Positions 1 to 56,081 of a stretch of DNA of 64,000 bases are shown piece after piece (the first letter of the stretch is position 1; each line of letters opens with the position of its first letter). Position numbers and translations under genes: made by a program. The notes under the pieces were generated by a model. The model worked only from the letters and a program-made list of their open reading frames with translations. It was not told the origin of the DNA and ran no database searches. The stretch is from contig OZ242260.1 of the NCBI GenBank assembly GCA_965207065.1, positions 2,400,001 through 2,464,000 on the forward strand. Reading direction: 5' to 3'. The DNA comes from a bacterium. Its GTDB lineage: Bacteria; UBA8248.

Positions 1-630
1 GCGATGATGAAAAGGATGGAGCGAGAAAGCGCTCCCGATGCTGATCGAACCCGAAGGTCGAGGGAGAGATGGCCCGGACCGAGAATTTCGCAACGGTCGC
101 GACGGCGCATGGGCTCAAACTATCAGGATGATGTATGGCGCTCTATCGGGGCGATGCAGAATAGGTTGGGCCGGGCCATGGGGGCGCGCGTTGCAGACGA
201 GCGCTCGCGCACGAGCCTCCAGTTATTATTGGAGAACAAGCGCCTCGCCTCCGCCCTGGCCGACTATGAAAAAGACTTGGGACGCCTGCTGGATGAGCAC
301 CCCGACGCCGTGGGCTATATCTTCGCCGTAAACGGCAAGATCAACAGCGGCGACGAGTTCGGAAGCGCCGGCTTGTTCCGGAAACTGTGGTCGCGGCAAC
401 TGAAGGCGGCGGCAACGGAGGCTGTCGCCGAAAAAGATGCGCCGAAGCGCAGGCAGCCGACGCTCGTCGATGTCGCCGCGTTCATCAACTCCACGCGCGC
501 AGAAAAGCCCGCCTTGAGAGCGATTCCGGGCGGCAATAATCTCGAGACGCGCAAGGCGAGCAAGTCGTATTACATGGAAATCCGGCGCGGGAACAACCGC
601 TGGGTGCACCGGACATACGTCGCCCACTAG
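1..630 (+). CDS. C-terminal part of a DUF6569/ARPP-1-like protein (probably 5'-truncated by the window edge)
   Basis: Segment SLQLLLEN...VGYIFAVNGKINSGDEFGSAGLFRKLW resembles this family from memory; followed by a terminator. Confidence 0.5.
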   Translation, partial: AMMKRMERESAPDADRTRRSRERWPGPRISQRSRRRMGSNYQDDVWRSIGAMQNRLGRAMGARVADERSRTSLQLLLENKRLASALADYEKDLGRLLDEHPDAVGYIFAVNGKINSGDEFGSAGLFRKLWSRQLKAAATEAVAEKDAPKRRQPTLVDVAAFINSTRAEKPALRAIPGGNNLETRKASKSYYMEIRRGNNRWVHRTYVAH

Positions 631-801: not shown

Positions 802-2631
802 ATGCTCTCGACTCTGGACTGGTCGCTCATCCTCGCCTACATCGCCTTCGCGCTGGTGGTCGGCGCGCTCACCTCGCGCTCGGCGTCTAAGAGTCTGGCT
901 TCTTACTTCGTGGCCGGGCGCAGCCTGCCCTGGTGGTGGATAGGCATCTCCATGGTGGCGACCACCTTCGCCTCGGACACCCCCCTCGTCGTGGCCGGCA
1001 TCGTCGCCAAGCGCGGCATCTCGGGAAACTGGTTCTGGTGGGCGTGGGTCATCGGCAACGTGGGCGTCGCGGTATTCTTCGCTCCCCTGTGGCGGCGCGC
1101 GGGCGTGGTGACCGACGCCGAACTCATCGAGCTGCGCTACGGGAGCGGCCCCGGCGCGTTCCTGCGCGGCTTCAAGGCCATCTATTCCTCCCTCATCGTG
1201 AACCTCATCGTCATGGGCTGGGTGTTCCGCGCCATGGCGAAGATAGCCGCACCCTTCCTGCGGTGGGAGGAGATACTGCCCCCGAACTGGTGGGCGGTTA
1301 TCGAGGCGAACTGGCCCGCCGTACTCACGATGGGAAGCGTGAACGAGAGCGTAACGGTCGCCCTGCTCGTCTTGATGATTGCGCTCTATGCGAGCGCGGG
1401 CGGCATCCGGGGCGTCATGCTCACCGACCTGTTCCAGTTCGTCATCGCGATGACGGGCAGTTGCCTGTTCGCCTGGTACGCTGTCGAGGCCGTGGGCGGG
1501 CTTTCGGGCCTGAGCGCGAAGCTGGGCGAGATTTACGGCGCGGAGGGCGCGGGCAATATCCTCTCCTTCTTGCCGCCCGAGAGCGCGGGATGGGCGGGGG
1601 CGCAGGTGATATTGATATACCTCTTCGTGGTCTGGTGGGCGCACAACAACGCCGACGGCGGCGGCTACATCGGTCAGAGGCTCTGCTCGGCGCGCTCGCC
1701 GAGGGACGCCCAGGCGGGCGCTTTCCTCTTCACGGTCGGGAACTACGTCCTGAGGCCCTGGCCGTGGATTCTCATCGGCCTGGTGAGCCTGATCCTCGTG
1801 CCCAAGGGGATGGACGCCCTGCCCGGCACGATGGAGGCGAAGATTCTCGCCGACCGCGAGGCGGCCTATCCCCTCCTGATGGAGAAGCTATTGCCTGCGG
1901 GGATTCTTGGTCTCGTGTTGGTGGGCCTTCTGGGCGCGTTCATGAGCACGGTGGACACCCACCTGAACTGGGGGGTGAGCTACCTGGTGAACGACGTTTA
2001 TGCGCGCTTCATCAGAAAAGGAGCGGGCGCGCGGGAGGTCGTCTTCGTGAGCCGCCTGGGCGTGCTGATCATGGCGCTCGGCGCGTTCGCCGTGGCGGGA
2101 CAGATAAGCAGCCTCGAGGTGGCGTGGAAGTTCCACATCTCGCTCGGAGCCGGGCTGGGGCTTCCGGTGATACTGCGCTGGTTGTGGTGGCGGGCGAACG
2201 CATGGACGGAAATCTCAGGGATGCTGGCCGCGGGCGCGACCGCCCTCTATCTCCACTGGGAGGGTGAGCCGCCCGCGTTTCCCATTCTGCTGGCCGCGGA
2301 GGTAGGGGTTGGTTTTCTGGCGATGCTGATTGCCACTCTCATCACGAGGCCCGCAAAAGCAGAGGTTCTGAGAGATTTCTGGACGAAGGTCCATCCGCCG
2401 GGCGTATGGGGACGGGTGCGCGGGGAGGACAGGCGCGCAGCCCCCGTATTGGCCCTCGCGGGCCTTTGGCTGGCATTGAGCGTCTTCGTATTCGCCTTGA
2501 TGTTCCTGGTCGGGGCGCTGCTCGTCGGCACCTGGGGGCAGGCGGTCGGGCTCGCGCTCCTGGCGGGATTCTCCCTATGCACGGCGTGGGGGATCGATAG
2601 AAGATATCGCTACGGAATCCTGTTCGTGTAG
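802..2631 (+). CDS. Sodium:solute symporter (SSS) family transporter
   Basis: 609 aa, many TM segments; SYFVAGRSLPWW, SMVATTFASDTP, GGIRGVMLTD, GAFMSTVDT motifs. Confidence 0.9.
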   Translation: MLSTLDWSLILAYIAFALVVGALTSRSASKSLASYFVAGRSLPWWWIGISMVATTFASDTPLVVAGIVAKRGISGNWFWWAWVIGNVGVAVFFAPLWRRAGVVTDAELIELRYGSGPGAFLRGFKAIYSSLIVNLIVMGWVFRAMAKIAAPFLRWEEILPPNWWAVIEANWPAVLTMGSVNESVTVALLVLMIALYASAGGIRGVMLTDLFQFVIAMTGSCLFAWYAVEAVGGLSGLSAKLGEIYGAEGAGNILSFLPPESAGWAGAQVILIYLFVVWWAHNNADGGGYIGQRLCSARSPRDAQAGAFLFTVGNYVLRPWPWILIGLVSLILVPKGMDALPGTMEAKILADREAAYPLLMEKLLPAGILGLVLVGLLGAFMSTVDTHLNWGVSYLVNDVYARFIRKGAGAREVVFVSRLGVLIMALGAFAVAGQISSLEVAWKFHISLGAGLGLPVILRWLWWRANAWTEISGMLAAGATALYLHWEGEPPAFPILLAAEVGVGFLAMLIATLITRPAKAEVLRDFWTKVHPPGVWGRVRGEDRRAAPVLALAGLWLALSVFVFALMFLVGALLVGTWGQAVGLALLAGFSLCTAWGIDRRYRYGILFV

Positions 2632-2718
2632 GGTGAATTCCGAGTGAGGAGCGAGGAATTCTTCCGCCCGAAGCGGGAGGGACCGCCACCTGCAGGAAAA
2701 TGAAAGCGCAACACGAAA

Positions 2719-2746
2719 GTAGGGACAGGTCGCGACCTGTCCCTAC
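2719..2746. repeat. GTAG-type REP palindrome
   Basis: Perfect 28-bp palindrome GTAGGGACAGGTCGCGACCTGTCCCTAC, identical to 56054-56081; lies between convergent genes. Confidence 0.85.
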
Positions 2747-2814
2747 AGATTCGGGAAGAAATTGCTGCCGGTATCACGAACAAAGATCACACTCGATCGG
2801 CAGCCGCCTCCTGT

Positions 2815-3291
2815 CTACTCGTCCACTTCCTCGAATTCCGCCGTGTATTCGACTTCGATGCCGCGCTGCACGCTCTGGCTCGCCGGGCAGCCTTTCTCAT
2901 GCACGGCGAGGGCGCGCTCGGCGTCTTCGCGCTTTCCCTTGGGGATTCGGCACTTGTATTTGACCTTGATTTTCGTGACCAGGGCCATGCCGTCCACGTT
3001 CTCGATGATGCCTTCGACTTCAGCCACCAGGTTGTCGGGGCTGCTCTTTATCCCGCGCGCATCCAGCGCGCCTCCCATATTGCCCGTCAGTCAGCCGGCG
3101 ACGGCGGCCGCGAGGTGATCCAGCGTGGCCGGACGCTCCTCCTCGGGTTCCGCCTTGTAGAAGTTCTTGATGCCCCCGTGGATGCCGTAGGGGATCGGCT
3201 CGTCGGGGAAGGCGTCGAGATAGCCCGTCTTCATGCCCCTGCCGGGCTCCTTGACGATGCGGGCCTTGGTGACGTGAATGACTTCACCCAT
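2815..3291 (-). CDS. OsmC/Ohr-like protein, predicted selenoprotein (UGA at 3093-3091 = Sec67), 158 aa
   Basis: ORFs 3091..3291 and 2815..3078 are in frame: ...LDHLAAAVAG-(TGA)-LTGNMGGALDARGI...VHEKGCPASQSV; RBS AGGAG before ATG 3291. Confidence 0.8.
3055..3090 (-). promoter_or_regulatory. Candidate bacterial SECIS element
   Basis: GCGCGC-UGGAU-GCGCGC hairpin; apical loop starts 26 nt after the UGA and has G at loop position 2. Confidence 0.55.
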
Positions 3292-3389
3292 CTTGCGCTC
3301 CTTTTCGTGATGAGGTTTCGAAAAAATTCCTTGAATGATTCGACACCCGAGAGTAGCACCCTGCCGGGGCGAGGGGAACTCTCCGGGTC

Positions 3390-4298
3390 CTACATGATAA
3401 CGACGATGGTGCCTGCAACGGTCAAAAGCGCGCCCAGGACGAGCCGGGGCGTGATGTTCTCCATCTCGCGCAGGAATAGCCAGCCGAGCGCCAACACGAT
3501 GAGCGGCTGGGCGGAGATGATGGCCGTTACGCGTACGGCCAGCGTGTGGACGAACGCGAAGTTATAGAGCGGCACGGCGATCGCCTGGCACGCGGCTGCG
3601 GCGAAAATCCACCTCCACGCCGAAGCGGGGATGGGGCCGCGCGATTCCTCGCCCCTGCTCAGCGCCATCAGCATCGAGGCCGTGGCGGCTCCCACCCATA
3701 GTGCGATCGCTGCGGTGGCGAGCGGGTGGAGGTTCAGGGACGCTTTCTTGAAGAAGACGGCGGCCACGCCCCAGAGCAGCGAGGTGACGCCGGCGGAGAT
3801 CCAGCCGAACAGTTTCCATCTCGCGTTCTGGGCTTCGGTTTCCGGCTCCTGGGATGGTTCGGCCTGAACGATGAGCGTGATGCCGACAAGAAGAATCGCG
3901 AGGCCGGTGAATATGGAAATCGTCGGCGTCTCTCCCAGCATGAACGACGCCCCGACCGCCGTGACGACGGGATAGGTAAGCGCGATGGGTATGGAGCGGT
4001 TGGGCCCGATGCGGTGAATGGCGCGGTAGTAGAACGAACGCGATATGCCGATGTGGAAAAAGCCCGCCAGGAAGGCGAACGTCAGTGTGGTCGCTGTGAC
4101 GCCCCGAAAATCCTCCGCGGAGATGAAGAATACGGCGATGAGCGTCACGAGGGCCGCGTTCACGCTCGTCATGGCGGCGGTGACCTTGAGGACGGGTGCG
4201 TTCATGAGCGCGCGCTTGATGAAATAGACGAACACCGCCCAGGAAGTCGAGGCGATCGAGGCGAGCAATACGCCGTAGGCGTTCGATTCGAGGTTCAT
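3390..4298 (-). CDS. EamA/DMT family transporter
   Basis: 302 aa, about 10 TM in two repeats; YYRAIHRIG, FMLGE and LFLRE motifs. Confidence 0.9.
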   Translation of the reverse strand: MNLESNAYGVLLASIASTSWAVFVYFIKRALMNAPVLKVTAAMTSVNAALVTLIAVFFISAEDFRGVTATTLTFAFLAGFFHIGISRSFYYRAIHRIGPNRSIPIALTYPVVTAVGASFMLGETPTISIFTGLAILLVGITLIVQAEPSQEPETEAQNARWKLFGWISAGVTSLLWGVAAVFFKKASLNLHPLATAAIALWVGAATASMLMALSRGEESRGPIPASAWRWIFAAAACQAIAVPLYNFAFVHTLAVRVTAIISAQPLIVLALGWLFLREMENITPRLVLGALLTVAGTIVVIM

Positions 4299-4361
4299 TT
4301 CAGCAGAAGCGCGCAGGCGGATGCGCCGCGCGGCTGGGCCTTCGGGATGTGGCCAACGACG

Positions 4362-4985
4362 TTATTTGTCGGAATTGATGCAGAGCACCGCGCGCCAGTA
4401 GTCGAATATGTTCACGCGCTCCTGGCGTTCGAGTGTCAGGTTGTTCGCCTCGAGCAGGGGCTCCAGGTCCAGAGTAGTCTCCCAGCCGAATTTCTTGCAG
4501 ACCCCGTTGATGAGTTCTTCGAATTTGGCCAGCAGGAATTTCTTGCTCTTGAAATGGTTGATGAAGACGACGCGCCCGCCCGGCTTGCACACGCGGCAGA
4601 TTTCCGAGACGACCTTGTGTGGATCGGGGGCGGCGCTCACCACGTAGCAGGCGGTGACGCAGTCAAAGGTGTTGTCCTCATACGCCATGTTCTGCGCGTC
4701 CATCACGGCGAGTTCGACGTTTTTGAGGCTCATCTTGTGGACTTTCTCTTTCGCTTTCTCGAGCATTTTCGAAGAGATGTCGATGGCGATGATCTCCGAA
4801 GTCGACGGGTAAAGGGGCAGGGAGAGCCCGGTGCCCACGCCCACTTCGAGCAGCTTCTCGCCCGGCTGGAGGTCGAGCATGTCCACACCGACGTTTCGGC
4901 CTTCATGGAACACGTCCTTGAAGACGAGGTCGTAGAATTTGCCCCAGCGATCATATATCTTGATGACAGAGTCGGGTGATTCCAC
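4362..4985 (-). CDS. Class I SAM-dependent methyltransferase (phospholipid N-methyltransferase PmtA-like)
   Basis: LLEVGVGTG motif I, IDISSKML, RVCKPGG; GTG start at 4985 chosen on RBS GAGG. Confidence 0.85.
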   Translation of the reverse strand: MESPDSVIKIYDRWGKFYDLVFKDVFHEGRNVGVDMLDLQPGEKLLEVGVGTGLSLPLYPSTSEIIAIDISSKMLEKAKEKVHKMSLKNVELAVMDAQNMAYEDNTFDCVTACYVVSAAPDPHKVVSEICRVCKPGGRVVFINHFKSKKFLLAKFEELINGVCKKFGWETTLDLEPLLEANNLTLERQERVNIFDYWRAVLCINSDK

Positions 4986-5188
4986 TAGGCATCCCTCAAT
5001 CAAGTTTCCGCGCACGCAACTGCACGTAATCCGGTGGGCGAAAGCCGCACAATGCGTCAAAACGTCCGGCAAAATTCCCGGATGAAGCGATTCCCTTTCT
5101 TCCAACTTCGGAAGATATGCCATATTGTAAGAAAAAATGGAAATTTTTTCCAGATCAATCGGCAATGATGTTAACGGGAGAACAGGAC

Positions 5189-14724: not shown

Positions 14725-14800
14725 GCTGGCGTAGCTCAGCTGGTAGAGCAGCTGATTTGTAATCAGCAGGTCGGAGGTTCGAGTCCTCTCGCCAGCTCCA
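14725..14800 (+). tRNA. tRNA-Thr(UGU)
   Basis: 76-nt cloverleaf, anticodon TGT, TTCGA loop, CCA end. Confidence 0.96.
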
Positions 14801-14965
14801 CGGCGGGACACGCCTCCCGGACCCCGCTACAGAAAATCCGGCTGGAGAACGCGCGCGTTTTCCCCTTTCGGGCTTTGGTGAATATCGCGGCTTCGGGGAG
14901 CGGATGGTTCCCGCGAGGTATTTTTGATAGTTTTTATAACCGTATTTGATGAACGGCGGTTTTCA

Positions 14966-15050
14966 GGGGAGGTTCCCGAGTGGCCAAAGGGATCAGACTG
15001 TAAATCTGACGGCTCAGCCTTCGGAGGTTCGAATCCTCCCCTCCCCACCA
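14966..15050 (+). tRNA. tRNA-Tyr(GUA)
   Basis: 85 nt with long variable arm, anticodon GTA, CCA end. Confidence 0.96.
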
Positions 15051-15097
15051 GCAGATGAATTGTCGAGACGACTAGGACACGCGCTTTGGGTTCAGAG

Positions 15098-15173
15098 GCG
15101 GGAATAGCTCAGATGGTAGAGCATCAGCCTTCCAAGCTGAGGGTCGCGGGTTCGAGCCCCGTTTCCCGCTCCA
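15098..15173 (+). tRNA. tRNA-Gly(UCC)
   Basis: 76 nt, anticodon TCC, CCA end. Confidence 0.96.
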
Positions 15174-15353
15174 GGATGATTCGAGGCTCTCGCCTTTTCT
15201 TGATATGAATTTCAGTCGTGTGGATTTCGGCTCCCGGGGTTGCTCTGGAGGGAATAAGCTGTATTATCCGCCCGGAACGAATACCGGGGTTCATCGTTCG
15301 CGGAGGTTGCTTCGCCTGAAACAAATGATGTTCGCACGCCCGGGACGCAGCCG

Positions 15354-15429
15354 GCCCACGTAGCTCAGCCGGCAGAGCACTTCCTTGGTAAGGAAGAGGT
15401 CACCGGTTCAAGTCCGGTCGTGGGCTCCA
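15354..15429 (+). tRNA. tRNA-Thr(GGU)
   Basis: 76 nt, anticodon GGT, CCA end. Confidence 0.96.
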
Positions 15430-15531
15430 GGGCAGGCGGAATTCATTGAAATTTTGAATTTTGTGCATTATCCTGCAAATCGCAAGAAACGCCTTGGAAT
15501 CCCTCGGGTTCGCAGATTTTCCCTTTGGCGA

Positions 15532-15561
15532 TGGACAAGGTTTCGTCCAAGCGGGTATAAA
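15532..15561 (+). promoter_or_regulatory. Putative promoter for tuf copy 1
   Basis: TGGACA-18 bp-TATAAA then GC-rich GGCGCG. Confidence 0.45.
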
Positions 15562-15656
15562 GGCGCGTTTTTCGGGAATGACAAGCAAGAGAGGAAATGG
15601 TTCCTCTCCCCAGAAAGATATTTTTAAGAATTTTCATCAGAAGGAGAAGGGAAGCC

Positions 15657-16835
15657 ATGGCGAAGGCGAAGTTTGAGCGCACGAAGCCGCACGTGAACGT
15701 AGGGACGATAGGGCACGTGGACCATGGGAAGACGACGTTGACGGCCGCGATCACGAAACACCTCTCTGCGAAGGGGATGGCGGAGGAGATCGGCTTCGAC
15801 GAGATCGACAAGGCGCCGGAGGAGCGCGAGCGGGGGATCACGATAGCGACGGCTCACGTTGAGTACGAGACGGACAACCGCCACTACGCGCACGTGGACT
15901 GTCCGGGCCATGCGGATTACGTGAAGAACATGATAACGGGCGCGGCGCAGATGGATGGCGCCATACTGGTGGTCTCGGCGGCGGACGGACCGATGCCGCA
16001 GACGCGCGAGCACATCCTGCTGGCTCGCCAGGTGGGGGTACCCTACATCTGCGTGTACCTGAACAAGGTGGACATGGTGGACGACGAGGAGCTTTTGGAG
16101 CTGGTGGAGCTGGAGGTCCGCGAGCTTTTATCGACGTATGAGTTCCCGGGCGACGACATACCGGTTGTTCCGGGTTCGGCGCTGAGAGCCTTGGAGGGGA
16201 CGGACACGTCTTCGATAGACGATTTGATGGAGGCGGTGGACGGCTACATCCCGGAGCCGGTCCGCGACGTGGACAAGCCGTTCCTGATGCCTGTGGAGGA
16301 CGTGTTTTCGATATCGGGCCGTGGCACGGTTGCGACGGGCCGTGTGGAGCGCGGGATCGTGAACGTTGGGGATGAGGTGGAGATAGTGGGCATCACGGAC
16401 ACGCGCAAGACGGTTGCGACGGGCGTTGAGATGTTCCGGAAGCTCCTGGACCAGGGCCAGGCGGGTGACAACGTAGGGGTATTGCTCCGGGGCATCAAGA
16501 AGGACGAGATAGAGCGCGGCCAGGTGCTGGCGCAGCCGGCCTCGATCATGCCGCACCTGAAGTTCAAGGGTGAGGTATACATACTGACGAAAGAAGAGGG
16601 TGGTCGTCACACGCCGTTTTTCAACGGCTACCGTCCTCAGTTTTATTTCCGTACGACGGACGTGACGGGTCTGGTGACGCTGCCTGAGGGTCGTGAGATG
16701 GTGATGCCGGGCGACAACGTATCGTTGGACGTAGAGTTGATAACGCCGATAGCGATGGAGCGCGAGTTGCGCTTCGCGATACGCGAGGGAGGCCGCACCG
16801 TGGGGGCCGGCGTCGTCACAGAGGTCGTCGAGTAG
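15657..16835 (+). CDS. tuf: Elongation factor Tu (copy 1)
   Basis: [39 protein letters not shown]. Confidence 0.99.
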
Positions 16836-16875
16836 AGCGGTCAGGCGGTCGTTTCAGAAGAATCAGGGCTTTCAC

Positions 16876-16951
16876 AGGCCAGTGGCTCAATTGGTAGAGC
16901 ACCGGACTCCAAATCCGGCGGTTGGGGGTTCGAGTCCCTCCTGGCCTGCCA
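16876..16951 (+). tRNA. tRNA-Trp(CCA)
   Basis: 76 nt, anticodon CCA, usual position before secE. Confidence 0.96.
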
Positions 16952-31876: not shown

Positions 31877-33055
31877 ATGGCGAAGGCGAAGTTTGAGCGC
31901 ACGAAGCCGCACGTGAACGTAGGGACGATAGGGCACGTGGACCATGGGAAGACGACGTTGACGGCCGCGATCACGAAACACCTCTCTGCGAAGGGGATGG
32001 CGGAGGAGATCGGCTTCGACGAGATCGACAAGGCGCCGGAGGAGCGCGAGCGGGGGATCACGATAGCGACGGCTCACGTTGAGTACGAGACGGACAACCG
32101 CCACTACGCGCACGTGGACTGTCCGGGCCATGCGGATTACGTGAAGAACATGATAACGGGCGCGGCGCAGATGGATGGCGCCATACTGGTGGTCTCGGCG
32201 GCGGACGGACCGATGCCGCAGACGCGCGAGCACATCCTGCTGGCTCGCCAGGTGGGGGTACCCTACATCTGCGTGTACCTGAACAAGGTGGACATGGTGG
32301 ACGACGAGGAGCTTTTGGAGCTGGTGGAGCTGGAGGTCCGCGAGCTTTTATCGACGTATGAGTTCCCGGGCGACGACATACCGGTTGTTCCGGGTTCGGC
32401 GCTGAGAGCCTTGGAGGGGACGGACACGTCTTCGATAGACGATTTGATGGAGGCGGTGGACGGCTACATCCCGGAGCCGGTCCGCGACGTGGACAAGCCG
32501 TTCCTGATGCCTGTGGAGGACGTGTTTTCGATATCGGGCCGTGGCACGGTTGCGACGGGCCGTGTGGAGCGCGGGATCGTGAACGTTGGGGATGAGGTGG
32601 AGATAGTGGGCATCACGGACACGCGCAAGACGGTTGCGACGGGCGTTGAGATGTTCCGGAAGCTCCTGGACCAGGGCCAGGCGGGTGACAACGTAGGGGT
32701 ATTGCTCCGGGGCATCAAGAAGGACGAGATAGAGCGCGGCCAGGTGCTGGCGCAGCCGGCCTCGATCATGCCGCACCTGAAGTTCAAGGGTGAGGTATAC
32801 ATACTGACGAAAGAAGAGGGTGGTCGTCACACGCCGTTTTTCAACGGCTACCGTCCTCAGTTTTATTTCCGTACGACGGACGTGACGGGTCTGGTGACGC
32901 TGCCTGAGGGTCGTGAGATGGTGATGCCGGGCGACAACGTATCGTTGGACGTAGAGTTGATAACGCCGATAGCGATGGAGCGCGAGTTGCGCTTCGCGAT
33001 ACGCGAGGGAGGCCGCACCGTGGGGGCCGGCGTCGTCACAGAGGTCGTCGAGTAG
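31877..33055 (+). CDS. tuf: Elongation factor Tu (copy 2)
   Basis: Same 392-aa protein as copy 1. Confidence 0.99.
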
Positions 33056-56053: not shown

Positions 56054-56081
56054 GTAGGGACAGGTCGCGACCTGTCCCTAC
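56054..56081. repeat. GTAG-type REP palindrome
   Basis: Identical to 2719-2746. Confidence 0.85.

Follow-up and report, generated by a model that had tools for sequence, protein, structure and literature searches.

Does the in-frame TGA that separates two short open reading frames at positions 2815 to 3291 of this DNA end a gene, or does it encode selenocysteine (Sec)? The locus lies on the reverse strand of a stretch of 64,000 nucleotides, the whole of which is called the window here, and a preliminary description had proposed that it is a hidden selenoprotein gene, OsmC-like and interrupted at the position of a catalytic Cys. From the sequence of the locus, its relatives and its genome we infer incorporation of Sec at the UGA and conclude, with a probability of about 0.9, that 2815-3291 is one gene encoding a predicted OsmC-superfamily selenoprotein. 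The features of the gene are the following.

2815..3291, reverse strand: complete coding sequence of the predicted OsmC-superfamily selenoprotein (ATG at 3291-3289, UGA at codon 67, TAG at 2817-2815)
3091..3093, reverse strand: in-frame UGA, putative Sec codon U67 (conserved TGA, Cys in homologues, alignment to 1qwi and 1ukk)
2887..2889, reverse strand: TGC codon of Cys135 in the GCPASQSV motif, at the position of the second active-site Cys (alignment with E. coli OsmC Cys125)
3298..3304, reverse strand: Shine-Dalgarno-like AAAGGAG, with the ATG 6 nt further on (read from the sequence)
3055..3071, reverse strand: SECIS-like hairpin (stem GCGCGC 3071-3066, loop UGGAU 3065-3061, stem GCGCGC 3060-3055)

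Reading frame and conservation of the TGA

The split OsmC-like frame had been described exactly: in the sequence and the ORF list, a 66-aa ORF (3091-3291, reverse strand) ends in a TGA at 3093-3091, the frame stays open beyond it, and an 87-aa ORF (2815-3078, reverse strand) follows in the same frame. When the TGA is read as a residue, 2815-3291 gives a product of 158 residues with a single TGA (U67) and a TAG stop, which reads ...ATLDHLAAAVAG-U-LTGNMGGALDARG...HEKGCPASQSV..., the residues after the U being LTGNMGG. The Pfam OsmC model matches residues 53-149 of this product and thus crosses the TGA (E 6.8e-13, 49.3 bits versus a cut-off of 27.5). A promoter scan of window positions 2500-3500 found none.

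We considered and rejected a sequencing error at 3091-3093. One independent DNA contig (run X5, 23,176 nt) spans the whole stretch at the locus; the four differences listed for it all lie outside 3091-3093, and it keeps the TGA; TGC or TGT, which the preliminary description had named as a sign against a Sec codon, was not seen in its place. A contig of 335 nt from an RNA library (X15, window 2821-3155) also bridges the TGA, with DNA carry-over being possible in such libraries. The stretch is present in sequencing runs that include sponge metagenomes. As a separate observation, RNA-library contigs from two different studies (X16 and X17, window 2769-3075) both end at 3075, 4 nt upstream of the hairpin in gene orientation; this is possibly an assembly break at a T/C polymorphism at position 3079.

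A six-frame search of 61 genomes, that of the window and 60 relatives, found strong matches in 43 of them, 44 matches in all; these are 52-99% identical, come from the genus, family, order and class and from one more distant genome, and contain exactly one TGA each. In 17 genomes the search gave no match. In all 44 extracted copies, one of which is cut by a contig end, the TGA is the homologous codon (number 67 or 65), and the residues around it read ATLDH..AVAG-U-[LM]TG. Four further, weak matches in the same search (E 6.7e-5 to 7.5e-4) are other OsmC paralogues. In a scan with one genome per GTDB species, the column also holds TGA in 80 out of 80 loci, these being the best 80 of 163 confirmed relatives; this species-representative set overlaps the 61 genomes and is not independent of them. 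Pairwise dN/dS between the gene and 12 orthologues was 0.03-0.33 over codons 2-66 and 0.05-0.39 over codons 68-158, and, judged from these ratios, purifying selection acts on both halves. Distant orthologues have TTA, CTA, CTT or TTT where the 87-aa ORF begins with ATG, so the start of that ORF is not conserved.

Standard gene callers, as had been foreseen, divide the gene: its pieces of 66 and 87 aa are recorded separately, and the 87-aa pieces of relatives carry the titles 'OsmC family protein' or 'hypothetical protein'. These records agree with a TGA that is a true stop, the locus then being a pseudogene or two small genes of 66 and 87 aa, and table 11 callers give exactly these two ORFs, which public collections hold as separate proteins; we nevertheless consider this next to impossible, since a nonsense mutation would not last at one codon in all 44 copies, the most divergent at 52% identity, while dN/dS stays well below 1 to either side of it, the ATG of the second ORF is not conserved, neither half alone forms the OsmC domain that the Pfam match spans, and the full-length model is predicted to fold at pLDDT 97. 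The Pfam match, the conservation of the TGA, the dN/dS ratios on both sides and the unconserved ATG therefore argue for one gene and not two.

The gene is widespread, and the databases display the same fragmentation. An exhaustive search of 1.84 billion representatives gave 402 proteins at E <= 0.001, and among the best 150 of these, which were examined, 72 span column 67, 28 cover only the N-terminal part, up to residue 66, 29 only the C-terminal part, from one of residues 68-73 onward, and 21 fit no class; the 28 N-terminal and 29 C-terminal pieces represent a gene stored as two fragments. The 72 spanning proteins carry at column 67 a C in 56 cases (for example P0023, P0031 and P0122), R in 4, S in 4, G in 3, W in 2, D in 1, A in 1 and a gap in 1, which leaves 16 of the 72 without Cys among these best 150 of 402. 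The preliminary description had expected C or U at residue 67 of homologues, and this is what the 56 Cys-bearing spanning proteins and the TGA of the 44 orthologous copies display. At the column of the second Cys, 48 of the 53 spanning homologues aligned there have Cys. Some full-length database 'proteins' were set aside as uninformative artefacts, namely P0002, which is frameshifted, P0025, with R at the column and a degenerate sequence beyond it, P0003, which has G, and P0101, which has W.

Selenocysteine machinery, genetic code and hairpin

The genome consists of one contig of 4.48 Mb, and a search of it found the complete machinery for Sec. A selA gene (579 bits) adjoins selB (386 bits), both above their curated cut-offs, as is selD (334.5 bits), and a tRNA-Sec scores 75.9 bits, also over its cut-off, with the anticodon tca according to ARAGORN. 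The presence of selA, selB, selC and selD bears out the earlier suggestion that the organism uses selenocysteine. The selD gene (G000:C1:543537-544499, reverse strand) has itself one in-frame TGA, at match codon 10, followed by a GGUCC-GGA-GGACC hairpin, and its product is probably a Sec-containing selenophosphate synthetase.

Bacterial SECIS elements, as passages of PMC1088965 describe them, are stem-loops that closely follow the UGA and have a G in their small apical loop. The candidate hairpin of the gene agrees with this description: its GC-rich stem of 6 bp begins 19 nt downstream of the UGA, the right place for such an element, and its small loop contains G. The hairpin coincides with the strongest synonymous suppression in the gene. 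Synonymous diversity over codons 73-78 is 0.072 versus a mean of 0.39 over 151 columns (43 distinct orthologues), the lowest value of 152 six-codon segments, and none of 100,000 random six-column sets was as low. Over 31 distinct sequences, 98.9% of the hairpin cells are paired, with four of the six pairs invariant and two varying one-sidedly from GC to GU; no compensatory change was found in any of the six pairs in these sequences, and covariation is uninformative here. The 71 nt around the UGA fold no more stably than shuffled sequences do (minimum free energy, z 0.48), and an Rfam scan of the window at gathering thresholds found nothing at the gene and only five tRNAs elsewhere. In the clade labelled Rokuibacteriota/Methylomirabilota, nt 14-33 after the UGA form another hairpin, CGCUAGC-CGGGGC-GCUAGCG, which has a G-rich loop; 0 of 12 pairs are changed on both sides there, and covariation is again uninformative. 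Short GC hairpins with GGA or GUA loops also stand at comparable distances from the TGA in selD and in three NF041052 paralogues of the same genome. We propose that UGA codon 67 would be decoded as Sec by the organism's SelA, SelB, SelD and tRNA-Sec, and that decoding may be directed by this GC-rich hairpin, which has a G-containing apical loop and lies 19 nt downstream within the coding sequence.

The UGA might be read as a standard amino acid (Trp, Gly or Cys), through a reassigned code or near-cognate suppression. In its favor, P0101 and P0125 have W at the column and P0003, which lies deep within the TGA-bearing clade, has G; some annotation pipelines thus translated such genes by other codes. 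TGA is an ordinary stop in this DNA, however: among 32 non-overlapping long ORFs of the window, 10 end in it, it is also the terminal stop of several orthologues, and the code is therefore not reassigned. The Cys of 56 of the 72 spanning homologues is the classic Sec/Cys pairing, the genome has a full Sec machinery whose selD carries an in-frame TGA of its own, and a constrained hairpin stands at SECIS distance; we thus regard decoding as a standard amino acid as very improbable. The claim that the UGA encodes Sec draws its support from the conserved TGA, the Cys-bearing homologues, the full Sec machinery and the independent DNA contig.

Fold, neighborhood and possible chemistry

The AlphaFold2 model of the product (mean pLDDT 97.0, pTM 0.89) was built from a 54-row alignment of Cys-bearing rows only, in which the invariance of C67 is by construction. 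Its top PDB matches in Foldseek are T. thermophilus OsmC 1ukk (E 9.5e-10) and then E. coli 1nye and 1qwi, followed by Ta0195 and other OsmC-like and Ohr structures, with a probability of 1.00 for 1ukk, 1nye, 1qwi and 2onf. This OsmC fold and a Pfam score above the gathering score place the protein in the OsmC/Ohr superfamily PF02566. Phmmer alignments match U67 with Cys59 and C135 with Cys125 of E. coli OsmC, which are the two active-site cysteines of that enzyme according to passages of PMC5113044; the two positions that the preliminary description had assigned, the UGA as first Cys and the CP motif as second, are thus those of the E. coli enzyme.

Peroxidase chemistry is reasonably probable for the protein, judging from this active-site alignment. 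Sec67 would sit at the first active-site Cys position, on the central helix, and Cys135 at the second, and the protein would act as a two-residue (Sec/Cys) hydroperoxide reductase in which Sec67 attacks the peroxide and becomes a selenenic acid, Cys135 resolves this to a selenenylsulfide, and a thiol donor reduces the selenenylsulfide bond. We infer the assignments of substrate and reductant in this scheme.

The genes upstream are the following.

3390..4298, reverse strand: EamA-family transporter, upstream neighbor (Pfam EamA E 2.8e-29; upstream in 11 of 24 loci compared)
4362..5165, reverse strand: class I SAM methyltransferase, upstream neighbor (Pfam Methyltransf_11 E 3.3e-23; upstream in 15 of 24 loci)

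The order methyltransferase, EamA transporter, Sec-OsmC gene (the first two at 3390-5165, reverse strand) is kept in much of the family, and in some genera the methyltransferase stands directly upstream of the gene without the transporter. No thioredoxin, lipoyl or other reductase gene is conserved beside the Sec-OsmC gene in the 24 loci compared.

The protein could also be an OsmC-fold selenoprotein that is no hydroperoxide reductase, for example a redox or sulfur/selenium-transfer protein or a partner of the methyltransferase and the EamA transporter. The synteny of these two genes would suit such a role, as would the scores of the protein, which lie below the cut-offs of both the OsmC model (TIGR03562, 28.9 bits versus 85.8) and the Ohr model (TIGR03561, 21.3 bits versus 88.85). 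The superfamily includes members without known activity, and the catalytic Arg of OsmC sits in a Gly-rich loop, as passages of PMC5962072 report; the putative counterpart of that loop in the Sec clade reads YG[IVM]HGG (YGIHGG in this gene), with a nearly invariant His38 and no Arg seen. Against this, the Sec or Cys at 67 and Cys135 are retained and aligned with Cys59 and Cys125 of OsmC, and the closest solved folds are OsmC peroxidases, so that we regard a function other than hydroperoxide reduction as rather unlikely. Because the protein scores below the OsmC, Ohr and NF041052 cut-offs, the enzymology of OsmC and Ohr is not confidently transferable to the predicted Sec/Cys peroxidase.

Several other elements of the window were recorded, beginning with a repeat downstream of the gene.

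2719..2746, no strand assigned: perfect 28-nt palindrome (12 pairs), terminator-like and also a dispersed REP-like repeat, about 70 nt past the stop

This palindrome has two copies in the window (2719-2746 and 56054-56081) and occurs at 44 places in the genome with up to 2 mismatches, the reversed control giving 0; in the sponge metagenome run X5 the word depth climbs from about 62 to some 8000 across it. Elsewhere in the window, a cluster of five tRNA genes lies at 14725-16948 (forward strand), and two EF-Tu-like matches that are sub-threshold with the selB model lie at about 15693-16547 and 31913-33019; together these look like a translation-gene region with duplicated tuf. An ORF at 4-630 (forward strand) matches Pfam ARPP-1 (ARG and Rhodanese-Phosphatase-superfamily-associated Protein domain, E 1.3e-17).

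Place among OsmC-type selenoproteins

That OsmC-like selenoproteins had been reported in bacteria, as the preliminary description stated, agrees with passages of PMC1088965 (Zhang et al. 2005), where they appear among Sargasso Sea sequences as COG1765/PF02566 proteins with the motif UxxT, and with passages of later surveys; the same motif is given for the family in those of the GOS study of 2008 (PMC2398784) and of the reviews PMC9312934 and PMC13188914. Going by the shared UxxT motif, the family of Zhang et al. would correspond to NCBIfam NF041052, 'OsmC-related (seleno)protein'. We rejected membership of the present gene in this published family, since it scores 19 bits versus a cut-off of 95 with NF041052 and its motif is U-L-T-G. 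The same genome holds three true NF041052 members elsewhere (173, 156 and 154 bits; motif GFULLTQ), and from the score, the motif and these three members the gene, with its AVAG-U-LTG, belongs to a separate Sec-bearing clade. The genome has in addition one other TGA-bearing OsmC gene of a different type (GHAGUGLYT) and three Cys-type OsmC genes, which brings the OsmC-domain genes with an in-frame TGA to 5 of 8. The TGA-bearing ones outside the window are at 2567485-2567913, 1353923-1354348, 786633-787028 and 430521-430913 of G000:C1.

A FastTree phylogeny of 146 distinct rows (96 TGA-bearing, 40 Cys and 10 other; truncated proteins left out, midpoint-rooted) places all TGA rows in a smallest group of 98 tips, the exceptions being P0122 (Cys) and P0003 (G), with a basal support of only 55. 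The G of P0003 is probably a TGA translated by another code. By record titles, the clade comprises MAGs labelled Nitrospinota/Nitrospinaceae, Candidatus Tectomicrobia, Rokuibacteriota/Methylomirabilota/NC10, Acidobacteria and Armatimonadota.

We tentatively suggest that this Sec clade of the OsmC superfamily is undescribed as such: it stands apart from the UxxT family and has no curated model, Sec appears fixed in every genome examined, two alternative in-gene hairpins occur, the sponge-associated genome has five TGA-bearing OsmC-type genes, this one included, and the chemistry may be unlike that of OsmC, with His for Arg in the loop that is the putative counterpart. The OsmC passages of PMC1088965, PMC13188914, PMC9312934, PMC1976440 and PMC2398784 give only UxxT (one gives no motif), which is not proof of absence in print, the scope of this comparison being those passages; the term 'OsmC' is absent from the main text of the BSepDB paper (PMC13326102).

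The gene is, on the reading preferred here, a mis-annotated selenoprotein of a known kind, from a clade outside the curated models searched, and since no NCBIfam model covers it, model-based annotation is not expected to recognize it. Selenoproteins of the OsmC type are already known. The gene opens no new principle of recoding. The OsmC superfamily would gain a second Sec-bearing lineage, and perhaps a third if the gene at C1:430521 is counted. The lineage appears to invest heavily in Sec-based redox enzymes, which fits passages of the BSepDB paper (PMC13326102) in which UBA8248 MAGs, under the names Nitrospinota or Nitrospinae, figure in the top ten of bacteria by number of selenoprotein genes.

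Among known systems, the UxxT family, as passages of the sources on it describe, resembles the present gene in belonging to PF02566, in having Sec where the central helix starts, in place of the first conserved Cys, in an in-gene hairpin after the UGA and in the existence of Cys-containing homologues; its NF041052 members read U-L-L-T, whereas this gene reads U-L-T-G and has hairpin types of its own. The OsmC proteins of E. coli and T. thermophilus (1qwi, 1nye and 1ukk) are the best fold matches (E 9.5e-10 to 3.2e-9, TM 0.69-0.77), and the best sequence match is 1ukk (E 5.8e-5). OsmC is a Cys-based hydroperoxide reductase with only 19-22% identity to the protein, which in contrast has a predicted Sec in place of the Cys and, ahead of the helix, an N-terminal region that is longer, at about 55 residues. 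Ohr shares the fold and the two-Cys layout (Foldseek 6eb4, 1n2f and 1zb9, E 2.8e-7 to 4.2e-6), whereas the protein falls under the Ohr cut-off of TIGR03561.
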